32,000 nt of DNA from Deinococcus radiodurans R1 = ATCC 13939 = DSM 20539 (GTDB lineage: Bacteria; Deinococcota; Deinococci; Deinococcales; Deinococcaceae): NCBI RefSeq assembly GCF_000008565.1, contig NC_000958.1:145467-177466 (forward strand), given 5' to 3'. Below are positions 7,335 through 30,333 of the stretch, piece by piece. A program made the position numbers and the translations under genes. Under the pieces are notes generated by a model that searched no databases, was not told where the DNA came from, and was given only the letters and a program-made list of their open reading frames with translations. The first letter of the stretch is position 1, and each line of letters opens with the position of its first letter.

Positions 7335-8656
7335 CAATGGTTCGTGCAGTTTTAGGCGGCTTTAAGTCCGAAATCCAGCGGACTGAACGGCGAATTCGCT
7401 CATTCTTCAAAGCGAGCCGAGAGGTCCAGATTGGATAAAATGACCTGGGCCAGCAGGGCGTTATACGCCCTGCGTTTCATGTCTTCGAGACTGAACACCA
7501 GATCCTGCCCGCCACCTGCCGCTCGCAGGGCCTCCAGTCGGCAAAGATTCAGGGTCAGCAGCACCACGTTCCAATGCGCCTCGATGCCCTGCTGTGACCG
7601 CAGTTGCACATCCTGGCCCCCCAGGAACTGTTTGGCATCCCGGAAGATCAGTTCGATCTCAAAGCGGCTTCGATACAGCGCCATGACCTCATGAGCCGGC
7701 ATGGTCACAGCGGTGCTGAACAGCACCGCGTAGCCGGTGACCTGACCCTTTTTACCAATCTGCTGAATGACGACTGCGCGCACTTCCCGCGCCCACTGCA
7801 CGCTCCAGACCACCTGCGTCCACACCCGCTCAGTCGGCCTTGCAGAGACGAGGTCGAAGCGCTGCAGGTCACTGAAGTCCACCTTACCGTCGAACTTCTT
7901 CTTTCGCCCCCGTCGTCTGGGATGCTCACCGGTGTAGAGGTCGTTGAGGTTGGCGTTGCGAGGCAATCTGGAGATAAACGGGAGACCGTGACCCGTCACG
8001 GTCTCCACGATGGGTTCCTTCGCGTAATTCCCGTCGGCAACGACAGCAGCCAGATCAAGCTGTTGAACAGTCCGGAGATCGAGCAGCACGTCATCCAGCT
8101 GATCGGCGGCCTGTTCCAGACGAGTTGGAGCCTCAGACCCGGTCAGGGTCTGACGGACATCGACCGTCAAGGCCTGCCGGTGCTGGACATCAATGAGGGC
8201 ACAACAGGATTGCTCGATTCCGCGTTCGGTCCGCGCGGCACAGCCATTCCAGAACGAGCCGAGGTGTGCGGTGTGCTGACCGGCTTTGCGGTGAAAAGAG
8301 GCGTCGATGGCCAGAACGCACAGTGGGCTGATCAGCCCACTCTCGATTGCTGTACTGACAGTCGCCTGGTGTAACGCGCCCCACGGAATGGCCCCATCGT
8401 CACTTCGGTGCAGCCAACGACGAATCGTACTCTCCGAGCAGGCTGCATACCGGGAGAGATTCAGGGCGTTCAGCCGTCCAGGAACAGCGAGAAAAACGCT
8501 GAGCAGCACGGTCAGGAAATTCCGCTGCGTCTTGCGCAGCGGGACCGCGCTGAGAACGTACTGTAGGATGGCCATCAGACCCATTGGAAGCGGTGATTTC
8601 ACAGCTCCATTTTCAATGGGTCTTTCCTTTTGGGCTCAAAACTGCACGAACCATTG
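7335..8656 (-). mobile_element. Complete IS element (IS4/IS701-like DDE transposase), 1322 bp, perfect 19-bp terminal inverted repeats
   Basis: CAATGGTTCGTGCAGTTTT at 7335-7353 is the exact reverse complement of AAAACTGCACGAACCATTG at 8638-8656. The repeats enclose a single transposase ORF. Confidence 0.85.
7400..8602 (-). CDS. DDE transposase (IS4/IS701-like)
   Basis: 400 aa. Candidate catalytic triad contexts are LAIDASF, VVADGNYA and YRSRFEIELIFRDAKQ. It is bounded by the 19-bp IRs. Confidence 0.85.
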   Translation of the reverse strand: MKSPLPMGLMAILQYVLSAVPLRKTQRNFLTVLLSVFLAVPGRLNALNLSRYAACSESTIRRWLHRSDDGAIPWGALHQATVSTAIESGLISPLCVLAIDASFHRKAGQHTAHLGSFWNGCAARTERGIEQSCCALIDVQHRQALTVDVRQTLTGSEAPTRLEQAADQLDDVLLDLRTVQQLDLAAVVADGNYAKEPIVETVTGHGLPFISRLPRNANLNDLYTGEHPRRRGRKKKFDGKVDFSDLQRFDLVSARPTERVWTQVVWSVQWAREVRAVVIQQIGKKGQVTGYAVLFSTAVTMPAHEVMALYRSRFEIELIFRDAKQFLGGQDVQLRSQQGIEAHWNVVLLTLNLCRLEALRAAGGGQDLVFSLEDMKRRAYNALLAQVILSNLDLSARFEE

Positions 8657-11706: not shown

Positions 11707-14700
11707 GTGAATATTTTCGAGTTCCGTCAGGAAGTCATCAACCAGTACGCCTCCTACGTCTCTTCCTTCGTTTATATCCGCGACCGGGACGTGCGCGCCT
11801 ATGTGGACGCACAGATGCGGAGTGGGGTCTTCTGGCCTGATCCTCTTGCGCAACTCAACCCCAACTTCACGCCGGGCGGCAGCGTCAGTGACCTTGTCAG
11901 TCAAGGGGTCCTGCACCCGGACTGCGCCGCGCTGTTTGCGGCTGGTGAGCCGCGCTCTCCCCTCAACTTGCACGCCCACCAGCGCGACGCGGCTCGGCTG
12001 GCCCGTGAGGGGCGCTCGTATGTCGTGACCACCGGTACCGGTTCGGGCAAATCACTGACCTACATCCTCCCTATCGTGGACCACGTGCTGCGCCGCGGCA
12101 GCGGCAAGGGCATCCAGGCCATCGTGGTCTACCCGATGAACGCGCTTGCCAACAGTCAGGTGGAAGAACTCAGCAAGTTCCTGGGCGACAACGGACCCGT
12201 GACTTTTCGGCGCTACACCGGCCAGGAAAAACGCGAAGAAAAAGACGCCATCATCGCCAATCCGCCGGACATCCTGCTGACCAACTACATGATGCTGGAA
12301 CTGATTCTCACCCGGCAGGACGAAGCCGCGCTGGTCCGGGCTGCTGAGGGCGTGCGCTTCGTGGTTTTTGACGAGCTTCATACCTACCGTGGGCGGCAGG
12401 GGGCAGACGTAGCGCTGCTGATTCGCCGCCTGCGCGAGAGACTAAGGGCCCCCGACGCCATTTGCGTCGGTACCAGCGCCACGATGTCGTCCAGTCCGGT
12501 GTATGCCGAGCGGCAAAGGGCTGTCGCGGACGTGGCCTCGCGGCTCTTTGGGTTGGACATGACCCCCGAGCAGGTCATCGGGGAAATGTTGGAGCGCGTG
12601 ACCTCAGGCGAGCCGGGCACCGCCGAGCTGAAAGCTGCCGTGGCCGCGCCAGTGCCGTCCACCTTTGAAACCTTTATTCGCGACGCCTTGGTGGTGTGGC
12701 TTGAAAACATGGTGGGCCTCCGGTGGGACGGCGAGGCGAAGCGCTATGACCGACAACCACCACAGGCCGTGGCGGGGGACGGGGGGCTGGCGGCGCAGCT
12801 CGCCCTGGAAACGGGCCTCCCCGTGATGCAGTGCCTGGAAGCCCTGCAAGGCCGCCTCCTCGCCGGCAACGCTCTGCAGCACCCGGCCACGGGGCGACCG
12901 GTGTTCGCGTTTCGGCTTCACCAGTTCATCAGCAAGGCGGCCACCGTCTACGCCCCGCTGCTGCCCTGCGCCGAGCGCCTGGAACACCTCACGTTGCGCG
13001 GACAGGTGTACGCCCCGGAGAGTGGGCGCACCCTGCGGCTTTACCCACTGGAGTTTTGCCGCAACTGCGGGCAGGAATACTACTCAGTGCGCCGCGTCCC
13101 TGACCCTGACACGGGCCGTGAGGTGTTCGTGGCACGCGGCAATGAGGCCCGCCAAGAAAGCACGCCGGACGACGGCTATCTCTACCTCGGGGACCCCCCC
13201 TGGCCCCTGGACGAGGAGAAGCTGCTTGAGCGCCTGCCCGACAACTGGCTGGAGGAGAAGAACGGCCAACTGCGCGTGAAGTCCAGCCGCCGTGGGCAGC
13301 TCCCACGTACCGTGCGGGTGAGTGGTCTGGGTGAAGTGGGCCAAGCGGAAAGAGTCCGCGCCGCATTCATAGAAGGCGAATTCCGCTTCTGCTTGTGCTG
13401 CGGCGTGAGTTATCTGGGCCGCACCGGCAAGCTGACCAAGCTTGCCACCCTGTCGAGCGAGGGGCGCTCCACGGCCACGACGCTGCTCAGCATGGCGGCG
13501 GTGCAGGGGCTGAGAAAGTCCGACCTGCGGGACACCGCCCGCAAGATTCTGTCGTTTACGGACAACCGTCAAGACGCCTCTTTGCAGGCCGGGCACTTCA
13601 ACGATTTCGTGTTCGTGGCCTCGCTGCGCGCCGCGTTGGCGCGGGCGCTTAAGGCAAGCCCACTCACGCTCGAAGACGTAGCCCAGAAGGTGTTTGCAGC
13701 GTTAGAGCTGGACCTCGCTGCGTTCGCCAGCGACCCCAACGTGCGCTTCGGCGAGCGCGACCGCACCCTCAAGACGGCCCACAACCTGATTGGCTACGCG
13801 CTCTATGCCGACCTTGCTGAAGGCCGCCGCCTGACCCTGCCCAACCTCGAAGGCGTGGACCTTGTGCGCTTCGAGTACCCCTACCTGCGAGAGGTTTGCG
13901 AAGCCCAAGACCTCTGGGAGCGGGCCCATCCGGCCCTGTCGGTGGTGCGCAGCGGCGTGGTCGAGGCGCGTGAGCGTGCCGCGCGGGCGCTGCTTGACTG
14001 GCTGCGGCAAAACCTCGCCATCAAGGCGCCTTACCTCGATCCCGACTATCTGGGCGCTGTGGTGCTGAACCTGGGCCTGATCCGCGAGGACAGCCCCCTG
14101 TCCCTACCGCCCGAAGAGGCGCAGAACCTCACCACAGCGCGGCGAGTGGTACTGGGCACGCTGCCACGCGACGAGGGACGCTCCACCGGGCGACTCTCTT
14201 TGAGCGCCCAGGGGGCTGTTGGCCGCTACCTGACGCGCCCGGAAACGCTCGCCTGGAGCCAGGCCCTGAAGCGCGACGATGTGGACGCCATCTTGCATGA
14301 CCTCTTGCTGGCCCTCTCTGAGTTCATCGAGCAGGTGGAGCCGGGCGCCTACCAACTCAAGGGAACCAGTTTCACTTGGCACGCCGGGCCGGGCACCGAG
14401 CCGTCCGTGGACGCCTTGCGGGTGCTGCGTCCCGCGGGCAGCGAAGCGCCGCGCGTCAACTCGTTTTTCCTCTCGCTCTACCAGCAGCCCGCCGCCGAGT
14501 TTCGTGACCTTCACGGCGCCGAACACACCGCGCAGATTCGCGCTGAGGAACGCGAGAAGCGTGAAGAAGCCTTCCGCGCCGGCACCCTCCCCGCGCTGTT
14601 TTGCTCGCCCACCATGGAACTGGGCGTGGATATCAGCGACCTGAATGTGGTGCACCTGCGCAACGTGCCGCCCACCCCGGCCAACTACGCGCAGCGCTCC

Positions 14701-16827
14701 GGGCGTGCTGGGCGCAGCGGGCAGCCCGCACTGGTGATGACCTACGCCACCACCGGTAACAACCATGACCAGTATTTCTTCCGGCGCCCGGGGCTCATGG
14801 TGGGCGGCAGCGTCTCTACCCCGCGGCTAGAACTGGGCAACGAGGCGCTGGTCAGGTCGCATGTGCACGCCATCTGGCTGGCCGAGACCGGCCAGAAGTT
14901 GCCGCCTTCGGTGGCCGAGCTGCTTGACGTGAATGGTGAAGACCCCACTCTGGCGCTGCTGCCGGACTTCCAGCATCCGTTTCAGGATGAGGGCGTACAA
15001 AAGCGCACTCTGATTCGGGCACGGCAGCTCATCGCTGGTCTGGGCGTGGACCTCACAGGGACCGGGTGGTACAGCGAGGAATGGCTCACTTACACCGTCA
15101 AACACGCCGCCCGTGAGTTTGACCGGGCCTGCGACCGCTGGCGTGACCTTTACCGCAGCGCCCTCTCGCAGCTTCACCTCAACAACGCCGTGCTGGCCGA
15201 CGCGGGCAAACGCCACCTTCAGGAACAGGCGCGCCGCCTGCACGCTGAGGCGAACACGCAGCTCAGCTTGCTGCGCAGTCCTGAAGGCGAGCTGTCGGAC
15301 TTTTACACCTACCGCTACTTGGCTTCTGAGGGCTTCTTACCGGGATACAACTTCGCGCGTCTGCCCCTCTCGGCTTACATACCCGGACGGCGCGGCGCGA
15401 AGGCAGGAAGGGACAGCTACCTCTCGCGGCCCCGCTTTCTGGCGCTCTCTGAGTTCGGGCCAAACGCCATCGTCTATCACAACGGCGCGAAGTACGAGGC
15501 CCACAAAGTCATCGTGCCGGCCCGCGGTGAAACCAGTGAACTGCCCACAGTGAGTGCCCAGCGCTGTGAGCAGTGCGGCTACCTTCACCATGGCAGCGGC
15601 GACGTTCAGGGCGATCAGGGTGCCCGCGACGTGTGCGAGAACTGTCAGGCCCAGCTCGCGCCCCCGCGCCCGGACCTCTTCCGCATGACCTCAGTGGCGA
15701 CCCGCCGCCGCGAGCGCATCAGCAGTGACGAAGAAGAGCGGCGCCGGATCGGCTTTGACGTCAAGAGCGGCATGCGCTTCGCTTCGCGCGGGGGGCGGGC
15801 CGACCGCGTGCAGGCGCTGGCAGCCACCGACGCGCCGCTGCTGCGCCTGACTTACGGCGACGGCGCGACGCTCTGGCGCATCAACTATGGCTGGCGCAAC
15901 CGCGAAAACAAGCAGGAACTCGGCTTTCTCTTTGACCCCGAGACCTCACAGTGGCTCAGCAAGCAGGGGCACGAACGGAAGCTCAAGGCCGCCGGAGGAC
16001 GGGACGTGGCCGTGCAGCGAGTGATTCCCTATGTGGAAGACACCCGCAATGTGCTGCTGATTGAGCCGGCCCTTCCTCTGGATGCGGGCGGCATGGCTAC
16101 GCTGATGAGCGCTCTCAAAAACGCTGCGCAGCTCACCTACCAGCTGGAGGACAGTGAGCTCGCGGCCGAGTTGCTGCCCGACAGCCAGGAGCCGCGCCAA
16201 ATTCTGCTGTACGAAGCGTCCGAAGGCGGGGCCGGCGTACTGCAAGATTTGGTGTTCCGCTCGGGGGCGCTGGGTGAAGTGGCCGCCGCGGCGCTGGGCC
16301 TGCTGCACTTTGACCCCCTGACGGGCGAGGATCACGGGCACGCCCCCCACGCGGCGGAGCGCTGCGAAGCGGCCTGCTACGACTGTCTGATGACTTATGG
16401 CAACCAGACGTTTCATGACCTGCTTGACCGCTTCGCCGTGCGCGAACTGCTGCTGCGACTGCGTGAGGCGCGGGTCACCTTGCCCGGTGACGCAGGCGAC
16501 CCTTTTGAGACCCTCTGCGCGGCGTGCGGCAGTGAACTGGAGCGCGAATGGTTGCGCTTTGTGCGGGATGAGGGCCGGCGTCTGCCGTCACACGCGCAAC
16601 TGCTCGTGCCGGACCACTACGCCCGCCCGGACTTCGCGTACGCCGAGCAGGCGGCCCTGATCTTCATCGACGGGCCCCACCACGACCAGCCTGGTCAGAC
16701 AGGCCGCGACGCCCGACTGCGCGAAGAGTTGGAGTTTGCCGGGTATACCGTCGTGCCCTTTACGCATGACCGCAGCACCTGGCCGGCGCAACTTGCCCGC
16801 TACGCATTCATTTTCGGGGAAGGATAA
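11707..16827 (+). CDS. Large DEXH-box helicase fused to a DUF1998-type Zn-binding region and a C-terminal Vsr/DUF559-like endonuclease domain (DrmA+DrmB-like / DruE-like)
   Basis: 1706 aa with a GTG start.
- Helicase motifs: GTGSGKS (12031-12054), DELH (12370-12381), [19 protein letters not shown].
- CxxC...CxxC insert: 13057-13068 and 13390-13401.
- DUF1998-like region: [22 protein letters not shown] (15565-15644), [23 protein letters not shown].
- C-terminus: [12 protein letters not shown]...RPDFAY...LIFIDGPHH...[12 protein letters not shown], which resembles DUF559/Vsr-fold nucleases. Confidence 0.9.
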
Positions 16828-16829
16828 CT

Positions 16830-19655
16830 ATGACGTTTGATATCGGTTCAATGGTGCGTGCCCGTGGGCGCGACTGGGTGGTGCTGCCTGAAAGCGGCGC
16901 GGACTTCCTGCTGCTGCGTCCCCTGGGCGGCAGCGACGCAGAAATCGCGGGCGTGTACGCCGGGGAGGGTGGGGAGGAGGTCACCTCGGCAGCGTTCGCC
17001 CCCCCGAGCCCCGCGGCCTTCGGGACCGCGAGTGGAGCGCGGCTGCTGCTGAACGCGGCCCGGCTGGCGGTGCGCAGCGGCGCTGGGCCCTTCCGGTCCC
17101 TGAGCCGCCTGGGCGTGGAGCCGCGCCCGTACCAGCTGGTGCCGCTCCTCATGGCCCTGCGCCAGAGCCCGGCCCGGCTGATGATCGCCGACGACGTGGG
17201 CATCGGGAAGACGGTGGAAGCCGCCTTAATCGCCCGCGAGCTGCTGGACCGGGGCGAGATCGACCGCCTGACGGTCCTGTGCCCACCGCACCTGGCGGGA
17301 CAGTGGGTGGAGGAATTGCGGGTCAAGTTCGGCATCGACGCGGTGGCCGTGCTGCCCGGCACCGCCCGGCGCCTGGAAAAGGGCTGTAACCCTGGCCAGA
17401 GCGTCTTTGAGCGCTACAAATTCACGGTGGTCAGTCTCGACCTCGTGAAGTCGGACCGGTGGCGGCAGGACTTTCTGACCAATGCGCCCGATTTCGTCAT
17501 CGTGGACGAGGCGCACGCCAGTGCTGAGGGCGAGGGCATGGGCACCAAGCGCCACCAACGCTACCGGCTGCTCGAAGACCTCGCCAGGAAGGAAGACCGG
17601 CACCTGATTCTGGTCACCGCCACGCCCCACAGCGGCAAGGAAGACGCCTTCCGCAGCCTGCTGCGGCTGCTCAATCCCGACTTCGCCAGGCTGCCACTCG
17701 ACCTCAGCGGGGCGCAAAACGAGCGTGCCCGCGCGACCCTGGCCCGGCACCTCGTGCAGCGCGGGCGTAAGGACATCGCAGAGTACCTGCAGGAAGACAC
17801 TCCTTTTCCAACCCGGCGCGACGCCGAGCTGCACTACGCCTTGCACCCGGACTACGCCGCCCTCTTTGACGACGTGCTGGCCTACGCCCGCGAGAGTGTC
17901 CACGTGCCCGGCGAGGCCCAGAGCCGCACCCGCATTCGCTGGTGGGCGGCGCTGGGGCTGCTGCGGGCGCTGGCGAGTAGTCCGCAGGCCGCCGCCGCCA
18001 CCCTGCGCGAGCGGGCCATAGCGGCGGACGACGGAGAGACCGACGAAGCGGTGATCGACCGGCTGGGCCGCGAGCTGGTGCTTGACCCCGAAGAGGGCGA
18101 GGACAGTGCCCTGGACATGACTCCTGGGGCTCAGGTGGACGGTGAGCAGAGTGAAACCACCGGGCGGCTGCTGACGCTGGCGAGCCGGGCCGACGCCCTG
18201 GCCGGGGCCAAGGACAACAAACTGAAGCTGCTGACGGCGCAGGTGCAGGGGCTCGTCGATCAGGGATTTGCGCCCATTGTGTTTTGCCGCTTTATTGCCA
18301 CCGCAGAGGCCGTGGCCGAGCACCTCCGGGGGGCCCTGAAAGGCAGCGAAGTGCTGGCGGTCACCGGACGTCACACGCCCGACGAGCGGGTGGACCGGGT
18401 GGAAGAGCTCGCCCGCGCTGAGCGGCGGGTGCTGGTGGCGACCGACTGCCTCTCTGAGGGCATCAACCTGCAGGCGGCTTTCAGCGCTGTGATCCACTAC
18501 GACCTGCCCTGGAACCCCACCCGACTCGACCAGCGCGAAGGCCGGGTCGACCGCTACGGGCAGGCCAGCCCCGAGGTGCGGGTGCTGACCATCTACGGCG
18601 AGGACAACCGCATTGACACCCTGATTCTGGAGGTGCTGGTGCGCAAGCACCGCTTGATTCGCGCCACGCTCGGCACCAGTGTGCCGGCGCCGGAAGAGGC
18701 CGAGAGCCTGCTCGACGTGCTGCTCAGCCGGGTGCTGAACGCGCAGGGGCGCGAAGTGATTCAGCCGCTGCTCTTTGAGGACGTGCAGGCCTTTGACCTC
18801 AAGTGGCGCGACGCCGCCGAAGGGGAAAAGAAATCGCGCAGCCGCTTTGCCCAGAACAGCATCCGCCCCGAAGAAGTGGCGAGCGAGTTGCGGGCAGTCC
18901 GTGAAGCGCTAGGGGACGCGCACGCGGCGCAAGACTTTGTGCTCGACGCTCTGAGTGGAGCCGGCGTGAGTGTTTCACCGCGTGTGGACGGCAGCTTCGA
19001 GGCCGACCCCGCGCAGGCGGACGTGAGGCCCGAGTACCGCGATTTCCTGCGTGGGGCGCGGCGTTTTCGCTTCGACGCCCAGACTGAGCGCGGCGTGACC
19101 CCGCTTGCCCGCAACCACCCCCTCGTGGAGCAGCTCGCCAGTACGGTGCTGGGGCAGGCGCTCGACGCTCCGCTGGAGGCGGCGGCCAAACGGGTGGGCG
19201 TGATTCGCACCTCCAAGGTTGCCACGCAGACCACGCTGCTGCTGCTGCGTCACCGCTTTCACCTCACGGGGCGCAAGGGCAACCGGACGTGGCAGACGCT
19301 GGCTGAGGAACTCGACCTGCTCGCCTACGCGGGGCGGGCACCGGCGGACGGGAAAGGCGGCTGGCTGGACGCCGAAGCCACCCGCGCCCTGCTCGCCCTG
19401 ACGCCCGAAGGCAACCTCGACCCGGTGCAAAAAGAAGACCGCTTGACCCGCGTTCTGGCCGACGTTCAGGGCCTGGACGGGCCCCTGATGGCCCGCGCTC
19501 AGGAGCGCGCCGCCGCGCTGCTGGAGGCGCACGAGCGGGTGCGTGGGGCCGCGCGCGGGCAGGGCGTGACCTACAGCGTGGAACCGCCCGGCCCCCCAGA
19601 CCTGCTCGGCATTTACGTCTTCCTGCCCCTGCCCAAACTTGGAGCCCTGTCTTGA
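16830..19655 (+). CDS. SNF2-family helicase (DrmD-like)
   Basis: 941 aa. Motifs DDVGIGKT (17190-17213), DEAH (17505-17516), TATPHSG, and helicase-C [12 protein letters not shown]...[22 protein letters not shown]. It starts 2 nt after the preceding stop, with GGAAGGA as RBS. Confidence 0.9.
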
Positions 19656-22264
19656 CCACCCAACTACATCATGTCCGCCTGCACGGCCTGGGCCTGACCG
19701 ACGATTTTCTGCTGCAACTTTCCGACCGCGCCCAGACGGGCAAGGTCGAGGGGGCCACTCCCGCCAGCTACGACCTGCCCCCCAAGACCAGTCTGGAAGA
19801 AGCCATTCAGGACGCCTGGGACGACGCCCGCAAAGCGTGGGCGAAATACCAGCAGCACGGCACCGACGCCTGGGCTGGATGGGTGCGGCCTCTGCTGCGC
19901 GCGCTGGACTACAACTTCGTGGGGGGCGGCGCGGCGGGCGGCAAATACGCCGTGGGCCACCTCACGGAAACCGGGGACGTGCCGCTGCATTTCACCCGGC
20001 AGCCGGACCTTGACCGCGTGACCGACGAAACCGGGCTGCGCGTCAGTCCGCACGGCCTGATGCAGGGCTACCTGAACGCGACGCCGGAGCATCTGTGGGG
20101 CCTCGTGACCAACGGCGAGACGCTGCGGCTGCTGCGCGACAACGCCCAGGTGACGCGCCCGGCCTACGCCGAGTTCCAGATTGGCGAGATGCTGCGCACC
20201 GAGGACGCCCGCGCCTTCCGGGTGCTGTGGCTGCTGCTCCACCGCACCCGGCTGCGCGGCGGCAAGGTGGGGCCGCTGGAAGCCTGGAACGAGGCGAGCA
20301 AGGTGCTCGGCCAGCGCGCCAACGACACCCTGCGCGACGGGGTACAGCTCGCCATCGAGCACCTCGGGACCGGCTTTTTGCGGCACAACCCGGAGCTGCT
20401 GGAGCGCACGCGCAGCGGCGAAGTCAAGGCCGAGGACCTCTACCGCGCGGCCCTGACCACCGTGTATCAGATGGTGTTCCTGTTCGTCACCGAGGACCGC
20501 GACCTGCTGTTTGCGCGGGATGAAGACGGCGAATACCTTCCCGACGCGCAGACCCGCGCCCGCGCCGCGCACTACCTGACCCGCGCCCTGCGGCAGAAAG
20601 CCGGCAGCGTAAACGGCAACCCGCTGCACCACGACGCTTACGTGGCCTGGGAGCGGCTGCTGGGCTACCTGCGCGGCGGCTTTGCCCCGCTGGGCCTGCC
20701 GGCGCTGGGCAGCCTGCTGTTTCAGCCGACCCTGCTCAGTGGCCTGAAACTCGGCAACGACGCTTTTTACGGCGCCGTGCGCGCCCTGAGCGAAATCAGC
20801 GTGAACGGCAGCCTGCGTCCGGTGAACTACGCGGGCCTGGACTCCGAGGAGCTGGGCAGCATCTACGAGAGCCTGCTGGAACTGGTGCCCCGCATCGAGC
20901 CGGGGCCCCGCTTCTCGCTGACCGTGCTGCCCGGCAATGAGCGCAAAAGCACCGGCAGTTACTACACGCCGGGCAGCCTGATTGACCTGCTGCTGGACAG
21001 CGCCCTTGACCCGGTGATCGAAGACGCCGTACGTGACAAGCTCCCGGAAGACGCCATCGCCGCGCTTAAAGGTCTCAAGGTGATCGACCCGGCGTGCGGC
21101 TCGGGGCACTTCCTGATTGCCGCCGCCCGCCGCATTGGAGCGCGGCTGGCCGAACTGGAAGAGGAAACCAGCCTCCCCAGCCCCCGCGCCCTGCGAAAAG
21201 CCACCCGCACCGTCATCGCCCACTGCATCTACGGGGCGGACATCAACCCCATGGCGATTGAGCTGGCCAAAGTCGCCCTGTGGCTCGAAAGCCAGGACGC
21301 GGGCCGGCCCCTGGCCTTCCTCGACCACCGCCTGCGCGTGGGCAACAGCCTGCTGGGCGCCACGCCCGAGCTGATGAACGCCGAGGACGAGATTCCCGAA
21401 AAGACCGTGCGCGGCGTGACCAGCCGGGCCGTCAGGGCCCATACCCTTCACCTGCCCGACGAAGCGTTCAGCGCCATTTAAGGTGACGACAAGAAAACCG
21501 TCTCGGAGCTGAAAAAGCGCAACAAGGCCGAGCGTGAGGCCCTGATTCGCGCTGCCAAAGGCGAACAGAGCCTGTTCGACGTGTCCGGCGACCTCGCGCC
21601 CCTCACGGCAATGGTGCGGGCGCTGGACAAAATCGAACCCGACAGCGCCGAGCACGTGCAGGCGCAGCAGAGTACCTACCACGCCATTCGCCAGAACGCC
21701 CGCTTGCAGGAGCAGCAGCGCCTGGCCGACGCCTGGTGCGCCGCCTTCGTCGCCCCCAAGACCCCCGGCCAACCCGCGCTAACCACCGCCACGCTGCACG
21801 CCCTGAAACGCACGCCGGACGCCCCCGCCCTGCAACCCGTGCGGCAACTGGTGAGCGACGTGGCCGCGCAGTACGCCTTCCTGCATCCGCACATCGAGTT
21901 TCCCGACGTGTTCGGAGACGCGCAAAAAGGTGGCTTCGACTGCGTGCTGGGCAACCCACCGTGGGAACACACGGAATTGAAGGAAAAAGAGTGGTTTGCG
22001 CCGCGAAAACCAGAAATTGCCGACGCCGCCACCGGAGCACTCCGCAAGAAAATGATTGAAGGACTGGCCGAGAATGACCCAAAGCTCTACGCCGACTTCC
22101 TGTTCGCCCGGCGTGAAGCAGACGCCGTGAGTCATTTCGTTTCGGCCAGCGGGCGCTATCCACTGACGGCGCGGGGGCGCATTAACACCTACGCGATTTT
22201 CAGCGAGCTTTGCCGAAACAGTCTCAATCCTTGCGGACGCCTGGGCATCATCGTGCCGACGGGC

Positions 22265-22303
<39 letters not shown>

Positions 22304-22510
22304 TTGATGGACAAAAAGTCGTTGGTGAGCCTGTACGACTTTGAGAACCGCGAAGGCATTTTCCCTGGCGTACACCGCTCATTCAAGTTCTGCATGTTGA
22401 CAGCCAGCGGCGAGAAGCGTCCCAACAATGCCGCGCAGTTCGCTTTCTTTGCCCTGAATGCCGACGAAGCCCGCGACCCCGGCAAGGTGTTCAGCCTCTC
22501 CCCTGCCGAA

Positions 22511-22563
<53 letters not shown>

Positions 22564-23165
22564 TGACGCGGCCATTACGAAGGGCATTTACCAGCGCGTA
22601 CCCGTACTGCTCAATGAGGCGACGGGAGAGAATCCCTGGGGCATCAGCTTCAAGCAAGGGCTGTTCAATATGACCAGCGATTCCGGCCTGTTTCGCACCG
22701 CCGCGCAACTGGACGCCGAGGGCTGGACGCTGGACGGCAACCGCTACCGCAAAGGCCCGGCGCAGATGCTTCCTCTGTACGAAGCCAAGCTAATGCACCA
22801 GTTTGACCACCGCTTCGCCACCTACACCGAGAATGGTGAGACGCGGGACATAACCAGCGCGGAAAAGGCTGACCCGGATTGCTTGCCGTTGCCGCGGTAC
22901 TGGGTAGCAGAAGCGGAAGTAGAAGACCGCCTGATTCAGAAAGATAAAAACGGGCGCGTGACTTGGGAATGGACTCGGGATTGGTTGATGGGCTTTCGGG
23001 ATATAGCACGGGTCACAGATGAGCGAACAGCGATTTTTGGCCTTTTTCCACCCTATGGCTCGGGAAACACAATGCCATTTATGTTTTCTGGCACTTCGGC
23101 ACTAGCTGCGTCAGCCTTGTTTATTGACTCCGGCACGACTTGGAGACGCGAGGTAAACTTAGGAG

Positions 23166-23651
23166 GTGCTGCGCGTCTGGCGACCCTCCACTTTGACTCG
23201 TGACCAGCTGGAAGAACGACGGCTGTATGCTCAGCAGCTCCTCGCCGCAGGTGAGGTCAATGCCAAGGAGATCGCGGCTTCGGTCGGCGTTTCCGAAAGT
23301 ACAGTCCGCACCTGGAAACAGCGTCTCCGAGAACGAGGCAGCCTCCAGGCCACCCGAGCGGCTGGGCCTTCACCGCGCCTGAGGCCAGAACAGCGCACGC
23401 AACTGGGGGAGATCCTGCGCGCAGGACCGCTGGCCGCCGGTTATCCCGACGCGCGTTGGACGACCTCCCGCGTGCGGGAGGTCATTGGCCTGCAATTTGA
23501 GGTGTGGTACCACGCCGATCACGTCAGGAAGTTGCTTCACCAGCTTGGCTTCAGTCCTCAGAAGCCAGAATCGCGTGCCTTGGAACGCGATGAGCAGGCG
23601 GTTCAGACCTGGGTCGAGCAGACGCTCCCCAGCTTGAAAAAAAAAGGTTGA
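23166..23651 (+). CDS. IS630 transposase, N-terminal HTH part (orfA)
   Basis: 161 aa with a helix-turn-helix or winged-helix pattern typical of IS630 ([21 protein letters not shown]; [10 protein letters not shown]...[19 protein letters not shown]). It ends just after an A9 tract. Confidence 0.85.
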
Positions 23652-23658
23652 GCAGGGT

Positions 23659-24177
<519 letters not shown>

Positions 24178-24489
24178 GCCGGAGTCAATAGTGACATGAA
24201 TAGTTATGTCTTGGATTACAGTGCACGTCAGAAAGTCGGCGGTACACATCTGACTTACAACTACCTCAAGCAATTCCCCGTCCTCCCACCCTCCGTCTTC
24301 AACCCTTCCCGCCTTGCCTTCATTACGCCGCGTGTGCTGGAGCTGACGTACACGGCCCACGACCTGTCCGGCTTTGCCCGTGACCTCGGCTACGCGGGCG
24401 AGCCGTTTACCTGGGATGACGAACGCCGCTTCTGGCTGCGGGCCGAACTGGACGCGCTGTATTTCCTGCTGTACGGCATTGAGCGCCCG

Positions 24490-24525
<36 letters not shown>

Positions 24526-24729
24526 AAGCGCAAGGACGTGGCAGCGCACGGAAGCTACCGCACGAAGGAAGCGATTCTGAGCGTGTACGACGAGCTGACG
24601 GCGCTGGGGCTGGAGCGCCTGCACGAGTACGCCAGCCGTGTACCGGGCGGTGCGGTGGCGGGCGGCTGGGGGCCTGAATGAGTTCATTACGTAGCACTTG
24701 TCAGGATTCTGGTACTATCTGGTGGTACC

Positions 24730-24996
24730 ATGACTAAGGTGAGTGGCAGACATCAACGGACGTTAGAGCAGATTTTTGCCCGTCCGATCTCTGGCACCAT
24801 TCATTGGGACGCGATAGAAAAGTTACTTGTTCACCTGGGAGCAGAAATCAGTGAGGGAAGTGGTTCACGGGTTCGTATCAGCCTTCGTGGGGTACGCGCC
24901 GTGTTTCATCGCCCTCATCCCCAGCCCACAACCGATAAAGGGGCCGTGAATGATGTCAGGAAACTTTTAGAAAACGCCGGTATACGTCCTGAATAA
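24730..24996 (+). CDS. hicA: HicA-family toxin (type II TA)
   Basis: 88 aa. The pattern RHQRTLEQIFARP..I.W.AIEKLL..LGAEISEGSGSRVRISL.G....FHRPHP....DKGAVNDVRKLLENAGI matches my recollection of the HicA/YcfA-like toxin family. It sits immediately upstream of a HicB-like gene. Confidence 0.75.
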   Translation: MTKVSGRHQRTLEQIFARPISGTIHWDAIEKLLVHLGAEISEGSGSRVRISLRGVRAVFHRPHPQPTTDKGAVNDVRKLLENAGIRPE

Positions 24997-25035
24997 TTAG
25001 TAGAAGCAATGGCATCATTTGCAAGGAAAACCAAG

Positions 25036-25542
25036 ATGACGACTTTAGAATATCGAGGCTATATAGGTAGCGTGACCTTTGATGCGGAAGCGGAAATTCT
25101 GCATGGCACGGTAGTCAACACCCGTGACGTCATTACCTTTCAGGGCGAGAGTGTCTCTGAGATCAAGCAGGCTTTTAAAGAGAGTGTAGAAGATTATCTG
25201 GCTTTCTGTGCCGAGCTGGGCGAGGAACCAGAAAAACCTATGAGTGGTAAATTTAATGTCAGGATTTCGCCTTTGCTCCACGCCCAGGCAGTTGCAATGG
25301 CACAGTCGCAAGAAATCAGCCTCAATACGTTGGTCGAACGCGCTATAAACGATGTGGTAAACCGCTCAGCTTCTGTGGATGCTCAGTCAGCTCAAGACCA
25401 CCAACCGAATACGGACGAAGAGTGTGATAGCGACAGGGAAATATATGATGTTGCTATACATTGGAGCGGCACAAGACTTGCAAAGGCATCGTCTGTCATG
25501 ACGTCTATGCAGCAATCTCTTGAAGTTCGGGTAACGAACTGA
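25036..25542 (+). CDS. hicB: HicB-family antitoxin with RHH-type DNA-binding region and a ~59-aa C-terminal extension
   Basis: LEYRGYIGSVTFDAEAEILHGTVVNTRDVITFQGESVSEIKQAFKESVEDYLAFCAELGEEPEKPMSGKFNVRISPLLH...SLNTLVERAI is the COG4226/HicB pattern. I prefer ATG 25036, with AAGGA about 8 nt upstream, over the ORF-track start at 25009. Confidence 0.85.
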   Translation: MTTLEYRGYIGSVTFDAEAEILHGTVVNTRDVITFQGESVSEIKQAFKESVEDYLAFCAELGEEPEKPMSGKFNVRISPLLHAQAVAMAQSQEISLNTLVERAINDVVNRSASVDAQSAQDHQPNTDEECDSDREIYDVAIHWSGTRLAKASSVMTSMQQSLEVRVTN

Positions 25543-26099
25543 TGCCCCGTAGAACCAGCCAGGAAGTGTCTCAAGCCGAGTCAATGGTATTGGATGCACT
25601 CACATACAACCGGTTCGTTGCGGGTGTGCAGCCCACCCGTATCGAACTGGGCGAGGTCAGTGCCAGCGCTAAGCCCTCGGATTTTCAGGAGCTTGACGTC
25701 AGAGTAGACAGTCATTTCAAGGTGCAGTGTCTCAAATCGAATGCTCAGGCCCGTACTTTTGAGATAGATGCCCAACTAGAACTGCATTTCATTGCCGCGA
25801 ATGAACAGAAGGTAGGGCAATTTGTTTGCCTGTACCACCTGTCTTACCTATCGGTAGAGGCACTGAGCGACGCGCTCCTCGAAGAATTTGCACGCCGGAA
25901 CGCGCCTGTGAACGTCTGGCCATTTATGCGGGAGCTGGTGCTGAATCTAACGCAGCGCTTCGGCTGGACCGGCTTCGTTCTGCCTAGTTTTCTTATTCCG
26001 CCTAGTCCTGAAAAGGCGTCAGACCCGGAAACAGCATCACATGATGCAGAAGTCGTCCCGGCTTCCAAGAAACCTCGCAAGGCTAAGACGAAAGCATGA
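25542..26099 (+). CDS. SecB-like chaperone (candidate TAC chaperone)
   Basis: 185 aa. The C-terminal core NAPVNVWPFMRELVLNLTQRFGWTGFVLPSF parallels E. coli SecB [32 protein letters not shown]. The preceding beta-rich region has a similar length. Its start overlaps the hicB stop (TGATG) and its stop overlaps the next start (ATGA). Confidence 0.65.
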   Translation: MPRRTSQEVSQAESMVLDALTYNRFVAGVQPTRIELGEVSASAKPSDFQELDVRVDSHFKVQCLKSNAQARTFEIDAQLELHFIAANEQKVGQFVCLYHLSYLSVEALSDALLEEFARRNAPVNVWPFMRELVLNLTQRFGWTGFVLPSFLIPPSPEKASDPETASHDAEVVPASKKPRKAKTKA

Positions 26100-29005
26100 G
26101 CGACGCTGCCATTTCGTGTTCTTGGAAGCCTTTTTTCCGCGAGTTGGCGACCCGGCTTCTGGACTATGAAGACCGCCAGCCTGAACTGCTTGCTGCGCTG
26201 CGTGACGCGAGCATCAGCATCAACCATGACGAAGGGGAGCCCCTGCGTGAAGTAGACCCATTCACGTTCTTCTCTTTGGTCCTCAAGCACACCTCAGACG
26301 CCACAGCTTTGCCGCTGTTTGCCAGGGTTGGGGCCGCTCTGGGGGTTCAGGCTCCTTCTCCTACAGACCTGATAGGCGTGCCGTGGAGCAACCCCATGAA
26401 TGCCTGGTTTTTTGCTTATCGCAGTCAGCGTCAACCGGGGGACGTACCGCTCCTCTGGCGACTGGCGCGGCAGGCAGTGGCCGGTATTCTGGACGCTCAG
26501 ACCTTTGAGGACGCCCTGAAGATTCGCAAGGTGGCGCTGCCCAAGCTGACCCAGGGTCTTTTCTGGCTCAACCCCGAGCGATTCCTGGCCCTCAATGCTG
26601 TCAATGTGCCTTATCTGCAGGCGCGTGGTCTTCAGGCGGCTGGTCAGGTTCAGACTCTTGCAGAGTATGAGACCGTTCTGGAGGCGGCTCACAAGCTCAA
26701 CCCTGACTTTGCGGCTTTGTCGCACCGGGCGTGGCTCAACAGCCAGACGGCGGCTCTGGAAGGCAATCATTTCCCGTTTGCCCGGTATCAAGCCGACGCG
26801 CAGGAATTTGCGGGGGACAAAGTCAAGGGCAACCTCGTGCTTGACCGCCGTTACGCGCCACTGCTGCTGGACTTGATGGCCGGCGAGTGGGAGACGCTGA
26901 AGCCCTCACGCTCGCCCTACAGCGGTCGGGAGCAACTCGCCGTCAAAGTGGCGCTGGGCGGCGGCGTCAAGACCGATGGCGGCGCCTTTGCGCGGGCGCT
27001 GCTGTTCGCCGACGACAGTGGGTTCGAGTACGTGCCTTTCTCAGCGGGGCTGACCCTGGAAGCCGGGCTGCCTGATGGCCGGGGAGACGGGCCCCGGCAG
27101 GCGCTGCAGGAGCCCGCTCGCCAGCACACCCTGCTGACGGCGCTCAATGCCCCTTTGCCGGCTGGCCTGGAAGCGACCCTCACCCTGAATACAGATTTTG
27201 GGGCCCTGTTTTTGTTGCCGCTGGGACCCGGGCGAGAAGCCGAGGCCGCGCAGCAGCTTCAGCAGTACATGTCGGGCGTGGGCCGCAGTCGCCGCTTGCG
27301 CGTGGGCCTGAGCCTGCTTCCCGAGCACCTCGAATCCGACAAGTTCCCCGAGCTGCTGGACGCGGCCCTGACATACCTTGACGCCCTTGTGGACCTGCTC
27401 GACGGCCTGATGCGTCCCAGCGAGGAGACATCGACTGAGGAAATTGGGGTTCCCGGCACCCGGCCTGTCGCCCCGACACCAGCGGCCTTCGTTCCAGTGC
27501 CGGGCGTGCCGCTCAACCAGATTCTTTATGGCCCTCCCGGCACCGGCAAGACCTACCGCGTGGTGGACGAGGCGCTCTCGGTCCTTGACCCGGCTTTCTT
27601 ATCTGCTCACCCCGGCAGCGAGGGCCGCGCGGCCCGTAAAGCCCGCTACGACGAGCTGGCCGCGCAAGGTCAGATCTCCTTCGTGACCTTCCACCAGTCT
27701 TTCGGTTACGAAGACTTCATTGAGGGCATCAAGCCGGTGATGTCCGGCGGGGCCCTCTCTTACGTGCTGCAAGACGGCGTGTTTCTGGAAGCGGTGCGGT
27801 CTGCCGGTGGTGCCCTCGCGCCGGCGGCACCGGAAGCTGGTCCCTCGACTGAAACACAGCCGCTGGTGCGCCCGGACGCGCAGGTCTGGCGAATGTACAT
27901 TGACGGCACAGCGCCGGTCAGCCGCATCCGTGACCTGAGTCTGGGCCGTGGCGAGCTGAGGATGGGCAGTTACGGGAAGCCGCCGCGCGATTTGACCCAA
28001 GCGGGCGTTGAGGACCTCAGCGGGCGACAGCTTCTTTTTAAGGAGAGCGTTCGTGTAGGGGACCTTATGCTGCTCGCCACTGCCGCCGACCGCATCGGGG
28101 CGGTGGGCGTGGTGACTGGCGACTACCGCTTTGACCCGCACAGTGACCCGACGTTTGCCACCGATTACGCCCACACCCGCTCTGTGAAGTGGTTGGCCCA
28201 AGACCTGAATGTCGGCGCCACCGAGACGCTTGGAAAATCGTTCGCCCCCCCGACCCTGCAGCGGGTGGCCGATGTGACCCCGGCACAAGTGCTTCAGGCC
28301 CTCGGTGTGTCTACGGCAGGCGGAGAGACCGCTCATGCGCCCACGCCGCGCCCGCACGTCCTGATCATCGACGAGATCAACCGCGGCAACATCTCCAAGA
28401 TTTTTGGGGAACTGATCACCCTGCTCGAAAGCGGCAAGCGGACCGGGGCGCCGGAAGCCCTGACCGTCACCCTGCCCCTGAGCCGCCGCCCCCTCAGCGT
28501 GCCGCAGAGCCTTTACGTCATCGGCACCATGAACACCGCCGACCGCAGCCTGACCCTGCTTGACGCCGCGCTGCGCCGACGCTTCGTCTTCCGGCCCGTG
28601 TGGCCCCAGCCCGAGGTTCTGCCGGTGCTCGACCTTGGCGGCACGGCCCTGGACCTGCGCAAGTTCCTGCACGTCATCAACGACCGCATCGAGCGCCTTC
28701 TCAGCCGCGAGCAGGTCATTGGACACGCCTACTTGCTGGGGCTGCCCGCCACGCTGGGCGGCGTATCCAGTGCTCTACGCGAGCGCATTTTGCCGCTGCT
28801 GGAAGAGTATTTCTTTGAGGACTGGAGCAAGATCCGTGAGGTTCTCGGCGATGAGAGCAAGGCGGAAGCGCTGCAGTTCATTCACCGCAGCGGCTCAGGG
28901 CCCGAGCTGCGTTACCGCCTGAATCCTGAGGCCTTCGAGAACATTGAAGCCTTCACCGGAGTTTATGCGGGCGTCAGCGATCAAGATTTCCCGTTTGACG
29001 CCTGA
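26096..29005 (+). CDS. mcrB: McrB-like AAA+ GTPase with ~470-aa N-terminal region and an insertion inside the AAA+ module
   Basis: 969 aa. Walker A GPPGTGKT (27530-27553), FHQSFGYEDFIEGIKP, Walker B/McrB signature LIIDEINRGNISKIFGELITLLE (from 28370), IGTMNTADRSL, and RRRF. Confidence 0.9.
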   Translation: MSDAAISCSWKPFFRELATRLLDYEDRQPELLAALRDASISINHDEGEPLREVDPFTFFSLVLKHTSDATALPLFARVGAALGVQAPSPTDLIGVPWSNPMNAWFFAYRSQRQPGDVPLLWRLARQAVAGILDAQTFEDALKIRKVALPKLTQGLFWLNPERFLALNAVNVPYLQARGLQAAGQVQTLAEYETVLEAAHKLNPDFAALSHRAWLNSQTAALEGNHFPFARYQADAQEFAGDKVKGNLVLDRRYAPLLLDLMAGEWETLKPSRSPYSGREQLAVKVALGGGVKTDGGAFARALLFADDSGFEYVPFSAGLTLEAGLPDGRGDGPRQALQEPARQHTLLTALNAPLPAGLEATLTLNTDFGALFLLPLGPGREAEAAQQLQQYMSGVGRSRRLRVGLSLLPEHLESDKFPELLDAALTYLDALVDLLDGLMRPSEETSTEEIGVPGTRPVAPTPAAFVPVPGVPLNQILYGPPGTGKTYRVVDEALSVLDPAFLSAHPGSEGRAARKARYDELAAQGQISFVTFHQSFGYEDFIEGIKPVMSGGALSYVLQDGVFLEAVRSAGGALAPAAPEAGPSTETQPLVRPDAQVWRMYIDGTAPVSRIRDLSLGRGELRMGSYGKPPRDLTQAGVEDLSGRQLLFKESVRVGDLMLLATAADRIGAVGVVTGDYRFDPHSDPTFATDYAHTRSVKWLAQDLNVGATETLGKSFAPPTLQRVADVTPAQVLQALGVSTAGGETAHAPTPRPHVLIIDEINRGNISKIFGELITLLESGKRTGAPEALTVTLPLSRRPLSVPQSLYVIGTMNTADRSLTLLDAALRRRFVFRPVWPQPEVLPVLDLGGTALDLRKFLHVINDRIERLLSREQVIGHAYLLGLPATLGGVSSALRERILPLLEEYFFEDWSKIREVLGDESKAEALQFIHRSGSGPELRYRLNPEAFENIEAFTGVYAGVSDQDFPFDA

Positions 29006-30333
29006 TGCCAGGGGCGCCTCCTCCGAATCAAGCCCCGCATTTTGAGGTCCGTGAGCACGACCTCTTGGTGCCTGGCATCCGTCGTCCTGAGTGGAAGGCC
29101 AATGTCACGGCTCTGCCCCCGGCAGTCTTTGAAGCCGTGCAGGCTGCCTTGTTCGACCCTCGGTATGAGCTGAGCCCGGTGGCCACCATGACCCGCTTTG
29201 AGGGCCGTGCGGCCCTGAAGCTCACGCAGTGGGTGGGGCTCCTGCGTACCCCAGACGGCGCGACGGTGGAGATCTTGCCCAAGACCCACGAGCGCCCGGG
29301 CACTCGCACCGGAGCCGAGTCCCTGGAGCGCAGCCGCGCACTGCTGCTGCGTATGCTCGCCGCCACCGACGAGCGCTTCCGGGTGGCGCCGCCAGCCGAG
29401 TTGCAAACCGCCCACATGCCGCTTTACGAGGTGGTCATCCGCTACGCCCTGGAAGGCGTCCGCGCCGCCGTTCGCCGGGGCATTCCACACGCTTATGTTC
29501 CGGTGCAGGAGGAACGCCCTGGACTGCGGGGCCGGCTGGACCTTCCCCGGCAGGTGCGGCAACCGCCCCACCGCGCCCACCTGCTCCACGTCACCTACGA
29601 CGAATTTTTGCCGGACCGGCCTGAGACACGCCTGACCCGCCTTTCGGTAGAACGTCTCGCTGCCCTGACCCGCCTGCCGGCCAACCAGCGCTTGGCCCGC
29701 GAACTCCTTCATGCTCTGGATGAGGTGCCCCCGAGCCGCAACGTCAACGTGGACTTCGCGGCGTGGCGGCTGGGCCGGGGGCACACCCACTTTGCGCCGC
29801 TTGAGGCGCTGTGCCGCATGGTGCTTTATGAACTCAATCCCATAGTGGCTGGGAAAAAAACCCAGGCTCACGCGCTGCTGTTCGACATGAATGTGGTCTA
29901 CGAGGCTTACGTGGCCCAGCTTCTGCGTCGCCTTTACCCGACGTGGACGGTTGCTACCCAGGTCACCCAGCGGGCCCTGGGAGACGCTGACGGCCTTCCC
30001 GCCTTCCGGTTGCGCCCCGACCTGTTGCTGCGCACAGAAGAGGGGCAGGTCATCGTCGCGGACACCAAGTGGAAGCGCCTTGAGGCCGACAAAGCCCCCA
30101 CCTACGACGTGGCCAATGCAGACGCCTATCAAATGCTCGCCTATAGCGAGGCCTTTCAGCACAGCGCGGCGTACACGCACAAGGCCCTCTGGCTGATCTA
30201 CCCCCGATTGCCCGGCCTGCCACCTGTCAGTGCTCCCATCCGCCTTGGGCAGGGGCGCACCCTCAGCATCGTCACCATTGACCTGAATCAGGCGGACCCT
30301 GGGGCACAATGGCCAGCTTCGGTCTTGACCTGA
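29005..30333 (+). CDS. mcrC: McrC-like PD-(D/E)xK nuclease subunit
   Basis: 442 aa. RPDLLL...VIVADTKWKRL (30061-30080) and NADAYQMLAY match the McrC nuclease core pattern. Its start overlaps the mcrB-like stop (TGATG). Confidence 0.8.
   Translation: MPGAPPPNQAPHFEVREHDLLVPGIRRPEWKANVTALPPAVFEAVQAALFDPRYELSPVATMTRFEGRAALKLTQWVGLLRTPDGATVEILPKTHERPGTRTGAESLERSRALLLRMLAATDERFRVAPPAELQTAHMPLYEVVIRYALEGVRAAVRRGIPHAYVPVQEERPGLRGRLDLPRQVRQPPHRAHLLHVTYDEFLPDRPETRLTRLSVERLAALTRLPANQRLARELLHALDEVPPSRNVNVDFAAWRLGRGHTHFAPLEALCRMVLYELNPIVAGKKTQAHALLFDMNVVYEAYVAQLLRRLYPTWTVATQVTQRALGDADGLPAFRLRPDLLLRTEEGQVIVADTKWKRLEADKAPTYDVANADAYQMLAYSEAFQHSAAYTHKALWLIYPRLPGLPPVSAPIRLGQGRTLSIVTIDLNQADPGAQWPASVLT

Follow-up and report, generated by a model that had tools for sequence, protein, structure and literature searches.

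A probable HicAB-type toxin-antitoxin-chaperone module among restriction-type defence genes on plasmid MP1 of Deinococcus radiodurans

The stretch of DNA analysed here (the window) comprises 32,000 nucleotides of the 177-kb plasmid pMP1 (megaplasmid MP1) of Deinococcus radiodurans R1. Unless another locus is named, all coordinates refer to it. Its region 24600-26200 matches pMP1 with 100% identity in 14 plasmid records. Three consecutive small plus-strand genes at 24730-26099 encode a HicA-like toxin, a HicB-like antitoxin with a disordered C-terminal tail, and a protein with a predicted SecB fold. We consider it about 80% probable that they form a tricistronic HicAB-type toxin-antitoxin-chaperone (TAC) module in which HicB is proposed to be addicted to the chaperone. 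An earlier examination of the bare sequence by eye (the sequence-only reading) had arrived at this idea. It is assessed here with profile, structure and comparative analyses.

Genes and products at the locus

The genes are hicA (24730-24996, 88 aa), hicB (25009-25542 in its longest form, 177 aa) and the gene of the SecB-like TAC chaperone (25542-26099, 185 aa). As is typical of TACs, they follow the order toxin, antitoxin, chaperone, are co-oriented and are tightly spaced. The hicB stop codon (25540-25542) and the chaperone ATG (25542-25544) share one base (TGATG), and the chaperone stop in turn overlaps the ATG of the following mcrB gene by four bases (ATGA, 26096-26099). No terminator-like site was found between the genes of the region. 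In 500-base windows, GC content is 0.476 at 25001-25500 and 0.530 at 25501-26000, compared with 0.63-0.67 downstream and about 0.66-0.71 further upstream; the two low-GC windows are those that cover hicB and the third gene. The low-GC patch, the gene layout and the TGATG overlap are thus as the sequence-only reading described them. RefSeq gives a functional name to hicA only; it lists the third gene as a ‘hypothetical protein’ with a later GTG start.

The product of the first gene is a HicA family member, as previously proposed: it matches Pfam HicA_toxin (PF07927) with 40.7 bits (E 2.5e-10), above the cut-off of 27. Its homologues (3657 matches) form a subfamily with an N-terminal extension in which the canonical GSH motif is replaced by GSR...FHRPHP. 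Residues G45, S46 and R47, together with F59, H60, R61, P62, H63 and P64, are invariant in 27/27 sampled members from several phyla. D. radiodurans HicA keeps every one of these residues, and for this reason it looks like a normal member of the subfamily and not a decayed one.

The second product is likewise a HicB family member, with 80.4 bits to Pfam HicB (PF05534; E 9e-23, cut-off 21) over its ribbon-helix-helix part. The family and the ribbon-helix-helix region recognised by eye therefore stand, and it is the start codon that needs correction. The true start is very probably the ATG at 25036 (MTTLEY...), giving 168 aa, because close homologues all start MTTLEY or MEY, other gene callers use the same start, and AAGGA lies 8 nt upstream. 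The in-frame ATG at 25009 would add nine residues. A cluster of 168-aa proteins (P0020) is 98% identical to the window HicB. In the AlphaFold2 (AF2) model, residues 1-119 (25036-25392) are predicted with a per-residue confidence score (pLDDT) of about 90. They comprise strands within residues 2-37, a helix at 40-61 and helices at 79-91 and 96-119, which corresponds to an N-domain followed by a ribbon-helix-helix domain. The best Foldseek match of the model is HicB of Burkholderia pseudomallei (6g26).

The remainder of HicB (residues 120-168, with the stop codon 25393-25542) is a candidate chaperone-addiction (ChAD) element. Its pLDDT is about 50 and it has no secondary structure in the model. 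By inspection it contains C130, Y137 and an aromatic/basic stretch, I-H-W143-S-G-T-R-L-A-K, and the protein ends ...VRVTN. Most HicB homologues are about 105-115 aa long and end just past the ribbon-helix-helix domain, without such a tail; the closest relatives of the window protein, TAC-linked HicBs of Deinococcus, have 161-188 aa. The short form is that of the widespread two-gene HicAB systems of the same subfamily (GSR-type HicA and PF05534 HicB, about 85 and 110 aa), in which HicA is 60-79% identical to the window protein and the folded part of HicB 46-65% identical; a SecB-like gene would not be expected behind these pairs. Published work (PMC5105189, PMC6377645) defines chaperone-addiction elements as C-terminal extensions that are disordered and missing from two-gene relatives, and the window HicB has such an extension.

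The third protein is predicted to adopt a SecB fold. Its AF2 model, for which a homologue alignment was the input, has a core pLDDT of about 90 (residues 20-140) and consists of one helix, four long strands and two helices between disordered ends; the SecB-fold core spans residues 19-139 (25596-25958). The first Foldseek match in the Protein Data Bank (PDB) is Rv1957 of Mycobacterium tuberculosis, itself a TAC chaperone, in complex with the HigA1 ChAD peptide (5mtw_C; E 9.6e-9, TM 0.82 normalised on the target), at a sequence identity of only 18%. Eighteen SecB chains follow, with SecB of Haemophilus influenzae and Escherichia coli next in rank (1ozb, 1fx3, 1qyn). A predicted SecB fold for 25542-26099 had been set in advance as the check on the SecB-like assignment, and the model provides it although the sequence models score below their thresholds.

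This chaperone belongs to a small clade. It has 19 close homologues; those with an organism name are all from Deinococcus, and none carries a precomputed Pfam domain. Their alignment contains a strongly conserved block, RRNAPVNVWPFMRELVLNLTQRFGWTGFVLPSF, and 35 invariant positions, all of which the window protein keeps. The C-terminal tail (residues 149-185, 25986-26096) is disordered and basic (...KKPRKAKTKA). A basic motif within it, [AS][RK]KPRK, is conserved in nearly all 19 homologues, and its charge is opposite to that of the tail of E. coli SecB, which is acidic and binds SecA. A profile search of 1.84 billion representatives yielded 1523 relatives. The two distant members that could be placed on contigs each follow an HTH_37-type antitoxin, ahead of which lies another small gene (Gp49-like for one of the two), with no McrB nearby.

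Related loci and the unit of inheritance

We compared the locus with fourteen others (L001-L014), ten of hicAB type (L002, L003, L007-L014) and four of higBA type (L001, L004-L006). L001 came from a genome scan, in which it was the sole locus, and most of the other contexts from exact-protein look-ups. Three of the set (L012-L014) are copies of the window’s own locus. Five independent loci are of hicAB type (Deinococcus radiophilus L002/L003, L007, L008/L009, Deinococcus wulumuqiensis L010/L011). The chaperone clade is present in thirteen of the fourteen; in the remaining one, L010, hicA and hicB occupy the same slot and no chaperone is called. Accordingly, the order HicA, tailed HicB, chaperone recurs in nine other hicAB-type loci with L010 as the exception. 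In the higBA-type loci (Deinococcus murrayi L001, Deinococcus reticulitermitis L004, and L005/L006), a Gp49/HigB-like toxin and an HTH_37 antitoxin stand ahead of the same chaperone. The chaperone gene follows a tailed antitoxin in every related locus where it is called. The slot is also nearly constant, after a gene for an MmeI/DrmMI-like type IIG methyltransferase and before McrB-McrC, with a Piwi-like gene intervening in two loci.

Tail and chaperone cross the boundary between the two antitoxin families together. The tail of the HicB protein P0023 (...DTDCLEVSSLTYSAQLSRRPRNIPF...VKEG) matches that of the HigA-type antitoxin of L004 (...GGDCLEVSQQAYSAQVSRRPANIPF...VKEG) with a BLASTP E of 3e-16, despite the folded domains of the two proteins being unrelated. 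When L008 and L004 are compared by blastn, their DNA homology breaks off where the methyltransferase gene ends and sets in again exactly at hicB codon 128 and higA codon 112, where the tail motif starts; from there it extends through the chaperone gene and the next gene. In addition, chaperones of higher identity tend to go with more similar tails, whichever antitoxin scaffold carries the tail (Spearman 0.50, Mantel p of about 0.02, n = 8 loci). Because of the shared tails, the DNA breakpoint at the tail start and this correlation, these sequences indicate that tail and chaperone are passed on together as a unit, while the toxin-antitoxin ‘warhead’ is exchanged.

A sample comprising the window HicB (C130), P0021, P0023-P0027 and the antitoxins of L001 and L004 was inspected for the motif at the tail start. 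Most tails, on HicB and HigA scaffolds alike, open with an acidic residue and a cysteine ([DE]-C, often DCxEV), and many finish with KV[KR][EG]G. The window tail retains EEC and not the rest. A hidden frameshift was considered as the source of its divergence and rejected, the other two frames containing stops and no tail-like motif.

Some of the related loci carry further differences around the module. In L004 (5653-7677) and L008 (2455-4494), a gene of 674-679 aa follows the chaperone gene; its weak or faint matches to Piwi domains suggest a possible prokaryotic Argonaute (pAgo), and in L004 it sits between chaperone and McrB. In D. wulumuqiensis, the methyltransferase gene of L010 is split and no chaperone is called after hicB, whereas in L011 methyltransferase and chaperone genes are intact and an insertion sequence lies between chaperone and McrB. 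Even between assemblies of a single species the island is in flux.

Upstream motif and flanking defence genes

A candidate promoter and operator precedes hicA on the same strand (24710-24729). As the sequence-only reading noted, the inverted repeat GGTAC-N9-GTACC lies directly before the hicA ATG: its arms are at 24711-24715 and 24725-24729, it ends at the ATG itself, and it occurs nowhere else in the window, where 0.01 occurrences would be expected by chance. A motif of the form TGGTACTRT-N6-GTACCATG is found ahead of hicA in 10/10 hicAB-type loci and in the same slot in 0/4 higBA-type loci; its arms are conserved and its spacer varies. Since it is present in all of the former and none of the latter, the motif goes with the hicAB cassette and not with the island.

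The element TGGTACTAT (24710-24718) fits an extended -10 promoter element (TGn-TAnnnT) that ends 11 nt before the ATG; if it acts as such, its position would imply a nearly leaderless hicA mRNA. Leaderless mRNAs are common in Deinococcus. The inverted repeat is a putative operator, and a HicB dimer sitting on both arms would lie over the -10 element as well as the start of transcription. A consensus scan found no two-hexamer sigma-70 promoter before hicA. The sole two-hexamer match of this kind in the region (TAGAAA-18-AATAAT, 24968-24997) lies at the hicA/hicB junction, ahead of hicB, and is a possible internal promoter for hicB and the chaperone gene; the number of such matches equals the chance expectation.

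The module is embedded in a defence island, as had been proposed. Downstream, also on the plus strand, are the genes of an McrB-like GTPase (26096-29005, 969 aa; AAA_5 and NCBIfam McrB) and of McrC (29005-30333; McrBC PF10117, E 9e-100), followed by a plasmid replication initiator gene about 4.7 kb from the TAC locus. RefSeq starts McrB 300 bases later (locus position 7797, window 26396), but DNA homology to mcrB of L005 can be traced from window 26123 onwards, which speaks for the longer form. McrBC likewise lies downstream in L001, L005-L007 and L010-L014, and the ATGA overlap between chaperone and mcrB genes is also found in L001 and L005/L006. RefSeq names the flanking products ‘class I SAM-dependent DNA methyltransferase’ (in two pieces), ‘IS630-like element ISDra3 family transposase’, ‘McrB family protein’, ‘McrC family protein’ and ‘replication initiator protein A’.

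Upstream lies a broken DrmMI/MmeI-like type IIG methyltransferase gene on the plus strand (19652-24681), delimited by tblastn with the 1320-aa orthologue of L011 and matching PADLOC DrmMI (1.7e-65). Two lesions inactivate it, an in-frame stop (21479-21481) and an insertion of ISDra3 (23122-24190), an IS630-family element with 27-nt terminal inverted repeats and TA ends; the orthologues in L005 and L011 are intact (1320-1325 aa). Two helicases precede it (11707-19655 for both together). One is a DEAD helicase of 1706 aa with an MrfA Zn-binding (DUF1998-type) domain, for which the best PADLOC match is DruE, with a weaker match to DrmA; the other is a 941-aa SNF2 protein (DpdE 1.4e-231, DrmD 5.6e-79). 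Judged from these matches, the two helicases and the broken methyltransferase look like a DISARM/Dpd-like system with an inactivated methylase.

Function, alternatives and significance

The fold of the third protein, the HicB tail, the conserved toxin-antitoxin-chaperone order and the island all support the chaperone-controlled HicAB of the sequence-only reading. In the mechanism that we propose, HicA would be a small RNase-type toxin, which the N-domain of HicB would neutralise, while the ribbon-helix-helix domain of HicB probably represses the operon at GGTAC-N9-GTACC. If HicB resembles HigA1 of M. tuberculosis and HigA of E. coli in this respect, the tail would make it prone to aggregation or proteolysis unless the SecB-like chaperone holds it. 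The chaperone would therefore be the switch: once it is titrated away, HicB would fail and HicA would be released to cut RNA. The most likely activation would be by phage structural proteins that compete for the chaperone, as in E. coli HigBAC, and the outcome would be growth arrest or abortive infection. The TAC/ChAD mechanism and its triggering by phage are described in PMC5105189, PMC6377645 and bioRxiv 10.1101/2024.02.24.581848. A newly made phage structural protein has been shown to compete with the ChAD for the chaperone of HigBAC and is proposed to do so for CmdTAC; in CmdTAC, overproduction of the chaperone abolishes protection.

Several observations weigh against this interpretation, among them those from sequence searches with the third protein. 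The SecB profile search recommended by the sequence-only reading gave matches that all fall below threshold: Pfam SecB scores 20.4 bits (E 4.9e-4, cut-off 26) and NCBIfam SecB 19.4 bits (cut-off 143). The best match in a defence library, to the CmdTAC chaperone model PADLOC PD-T4-9_C (E 1e-4), is likewise sub-threshold; being consistent with one another, the three matches nevertheless speak for the SecB assignment. Searches of PDB sequences with the protein (phmmer) or its family profile (hmmsearch) returned no SecB, only spurious matches to pyridoxal/pyridoxamine kinases. When the family profile was aligned with the E. coli SecB sequence, hhalign gave a probability of 0.5%, which is no evidence; it did reproduce the pairing with SecB made by eye for the segment APVNVWPFMRELV..., an alignment that by itself lacks significance. 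Sampled distant family members also remain below the Pfam SecB threshold (16-18 bits), and no sequence bridge to the curated SecB family was obtained through them. The SecB assignment consequently rests on fold and context.

Further cautions concern the toxin, the tail and the neighbourhood. HicA Arg47 aligns with the histidine of the GSH motif in Yersinia pestis HicA3, so that the canonical histidine is absent. No resemblance to the tails of the seven other loci could be detected for the window tail (scores 15-27), and its status as a ChAD element accordingly depends on position, disorder and one aromatic/basic stretch; it is a candidate. Translation of the chaperone gene is coupled to that of mcrB as well, and there is a small chance that the chaperone has a second partner or client. 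Finally, no published experiment on this locus was found.

The alternative that survives best, although we regard it as unlikely on its own, is that the locus is a TAC whose role is to stabilise MP1 by post-segregational killing and not to defend against phage. It lies on a plasmid close to the replication initiator gene, the module of L007 is near parA/parB, and plasmid stabilisation is a classical role of toxin-antitoxin systems, as reported for Rts1 HigBA. However, the methyltransferase/McrBC slot is conserved, and it is found on a 3.0-Mb D. wulumuqiensis contig as well (L010, where no chaperone is called). Moreover, pAgo-like genes are adjacent in two loci, and phage defence is known from characterised TACs with three types of toxin. 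Plasmid stabilisation is thus a reasonable alternative or additional function, and the two roles are compatible.

A different, quite doubtful possibility extends the TAC interpretation to the genes downstream. Tail and chaperone might be a fixed ‘sensor cassette’ upstream of McrBC, linked to it by the mcrB overlap and equipped with interchangeable HicAB or Gp49/HigA warheads, with the chaperone, through more than its guarding of the antitoxin and with its conserved basic C-terminal tail, possibly interacting with or reporting on the McrBC or DISARM-like machinery. If this were true, failure or inhibition of restriction would lead to toxin release, and the locus would be a TAC analogue of PrrC in a type I restriction locus.

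It is improbable that the locus is a decaying remnant, i.e. that inactivation of the island is under way, with a toxin that has lost its catalytic activity and three genes that no longer work as a system. The disrupted methyltransferase gene with its in-frame stop and ISDra3, the divergence of the window tail from all others, and Arg47 at the canonical catalytic histidine position would fit such a history. Nevertheless, the three reading frames are intact with their overlaps kept, the upstream motif is intact, the chaperone retains 35/35 invariant positions, and Arg47 is universal in the 3657-member subfamily, all invariant residues of which are present. Arginine at this position is therefore a trait of the whole subfamily and not of the D. 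radiodurans protein alone, and the invariant GSR and FHRPHP motifs suggest a different catalytic arrangement rather than decay. The G-S-H histidine is reportedly catalytic in other HicA toxins (H24 in B. pseudomallei, H28 in Y. pestis HicA3). The catalytic arrangement of this GSR-type subfamily, with thousands of members, may thus differ from that of the structurally studied HicA toxins.

We consider it very unlikely that the third gene is instead the first gene of the McrBC operon, encoding a protein that assists the McrB-like GTPase or its assembly, beside an ordinary two-gene HicAB. This idea draws on the ATGA overlap, here and in L001 and L005/L006, on the presence of McrB(C) downstream in most loci, and on the lack of a terminator-like site between the genes. 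Yet the gene overlaps the hicB stop as well. A tailed antitoxin still stands ahead of the chaperone where another gene separates it from McrB (L004 and L008), and also in L002/L003, which have insertion sequence genes only and no called downstream mcrB. Distant relatives follow toxin-antitoxin pairs away from any McrB, antitoxin tail and chaperone travel together in inheritance, and in structure the protein comes closest to a TAC chaperone. Lastly, a housekeeping SecB for protein export is scarcely credible: the SecB fold and one UniRef name given to homologues, ‘Preprotein translocase subunit SecB’, are set against the lack of a curated-model match (Pfam below its gathering score, NCBIfam far below its cut-off), a basic tail unlike the acidic SecA-binding tail of E. 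coli SecB, a plasmid-borne gene that is not solitary and lies in a low-GC defence island, and the finding that all Deinococcus-Thermus SecB-like genes are in TAC or antitoxin-chaperone (AC) systems (Sala et al. 2013, PMC3581621).

The class of system to which a HicAB-type TAC belongs is already known, and this locus is an unannotated addition to it. The sequence-only reading overstated the matter in calling HicAB-linked SecB chaperones little characterised: TACs with HicB-ribbon-helix-helix antitoxins were catalogued in 2013 (PMC3581621), and in 2016 the HicAB-SecB TAC of Methylomonas proved functional in E. coli (Bordes et al. 2016, PMC5105189). The supplement of the latter study makes no mention of Deinococcus. 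The Methylomonas system (Mmet-TAC of M. methanica MC09; HicA Metme_2813, HicB Metme_2812, SecB-TA) shares with the window the gene order, the toxin and antitoxin family names, and a HicB that combines a ribbon-helix-helix domain with a C-terminal ChAD extension. Experiments in E. coli showed that its toxin cannot be controlled without the dedicated SecB-like chaperone (PMC5105189), a role that we infer for the Deinococcus counterpart. By contrast, the N-terminal sequence type of Methylomonas HicB (G0A055, 159 aa) differs from that of the PF05534-type HicB of Deinococcus, and the Deinococcus chaperone clade is small, is without a precomputed Pfam match and, in this locus, lies between restriction-type systems.

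Two other characterised groups offer comparison. The M. tuberculosis TAC HigB1-HigA1-Rv1957 (PMC6377645; 5mtw), which supplies the best structural match of the chaperone, contains HigBA and not HicAB family proteins. The disordered C-terminal ChAD of its HigA1 carries an aromatic/basic motif to which the window HicB tail can be likened (WHRLSSYR and IHWSGTRLAK, a likeness seen by eye only), but the mycobacterial antitoxin ends in a Val-Ala ClpXP degron and HicB in ...VRVTN. The E. coli antiphage TACs HigBAC, CmdTAC (= PD-T4-9) and MqsRAC (Vassallo 2022/2024; Mets et al. 2024) have the defence setting in common with the window; they differ in their toxins, their prophage location and their demonstrated phage trigger. 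In E. coli, built hybrids showed that tail plus chaperone is exchangeable, while in Deinococcus the cassette exchange is natural. The anti-phage function and trigger mechanisms of these other TACs were published in 2022-2024.

These results bear on how TACs are recognised and on how they evolve. With a chaperone that is called ‘hypothetical’ and has no precomputed Pfam domain, the D. radiodurans TAC is invisible to routine annotation. One modest addition is natural evidence for the exchange of warheads around a fixed tail-plus-chaperone unit, with a breakpoint at the tail start. It indicates that the ChAD tail and its chaperone are portable and can be joined to unrelated antitoxin scaffolds, for which the earlier evidence came from engineered constructs (Bordes et al. 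2016, Mets et al. 2024). A second addition is the conserved slot between two restriction-type systems, which makes these loci suited to testing TACs as a second line of defence behind restriction.

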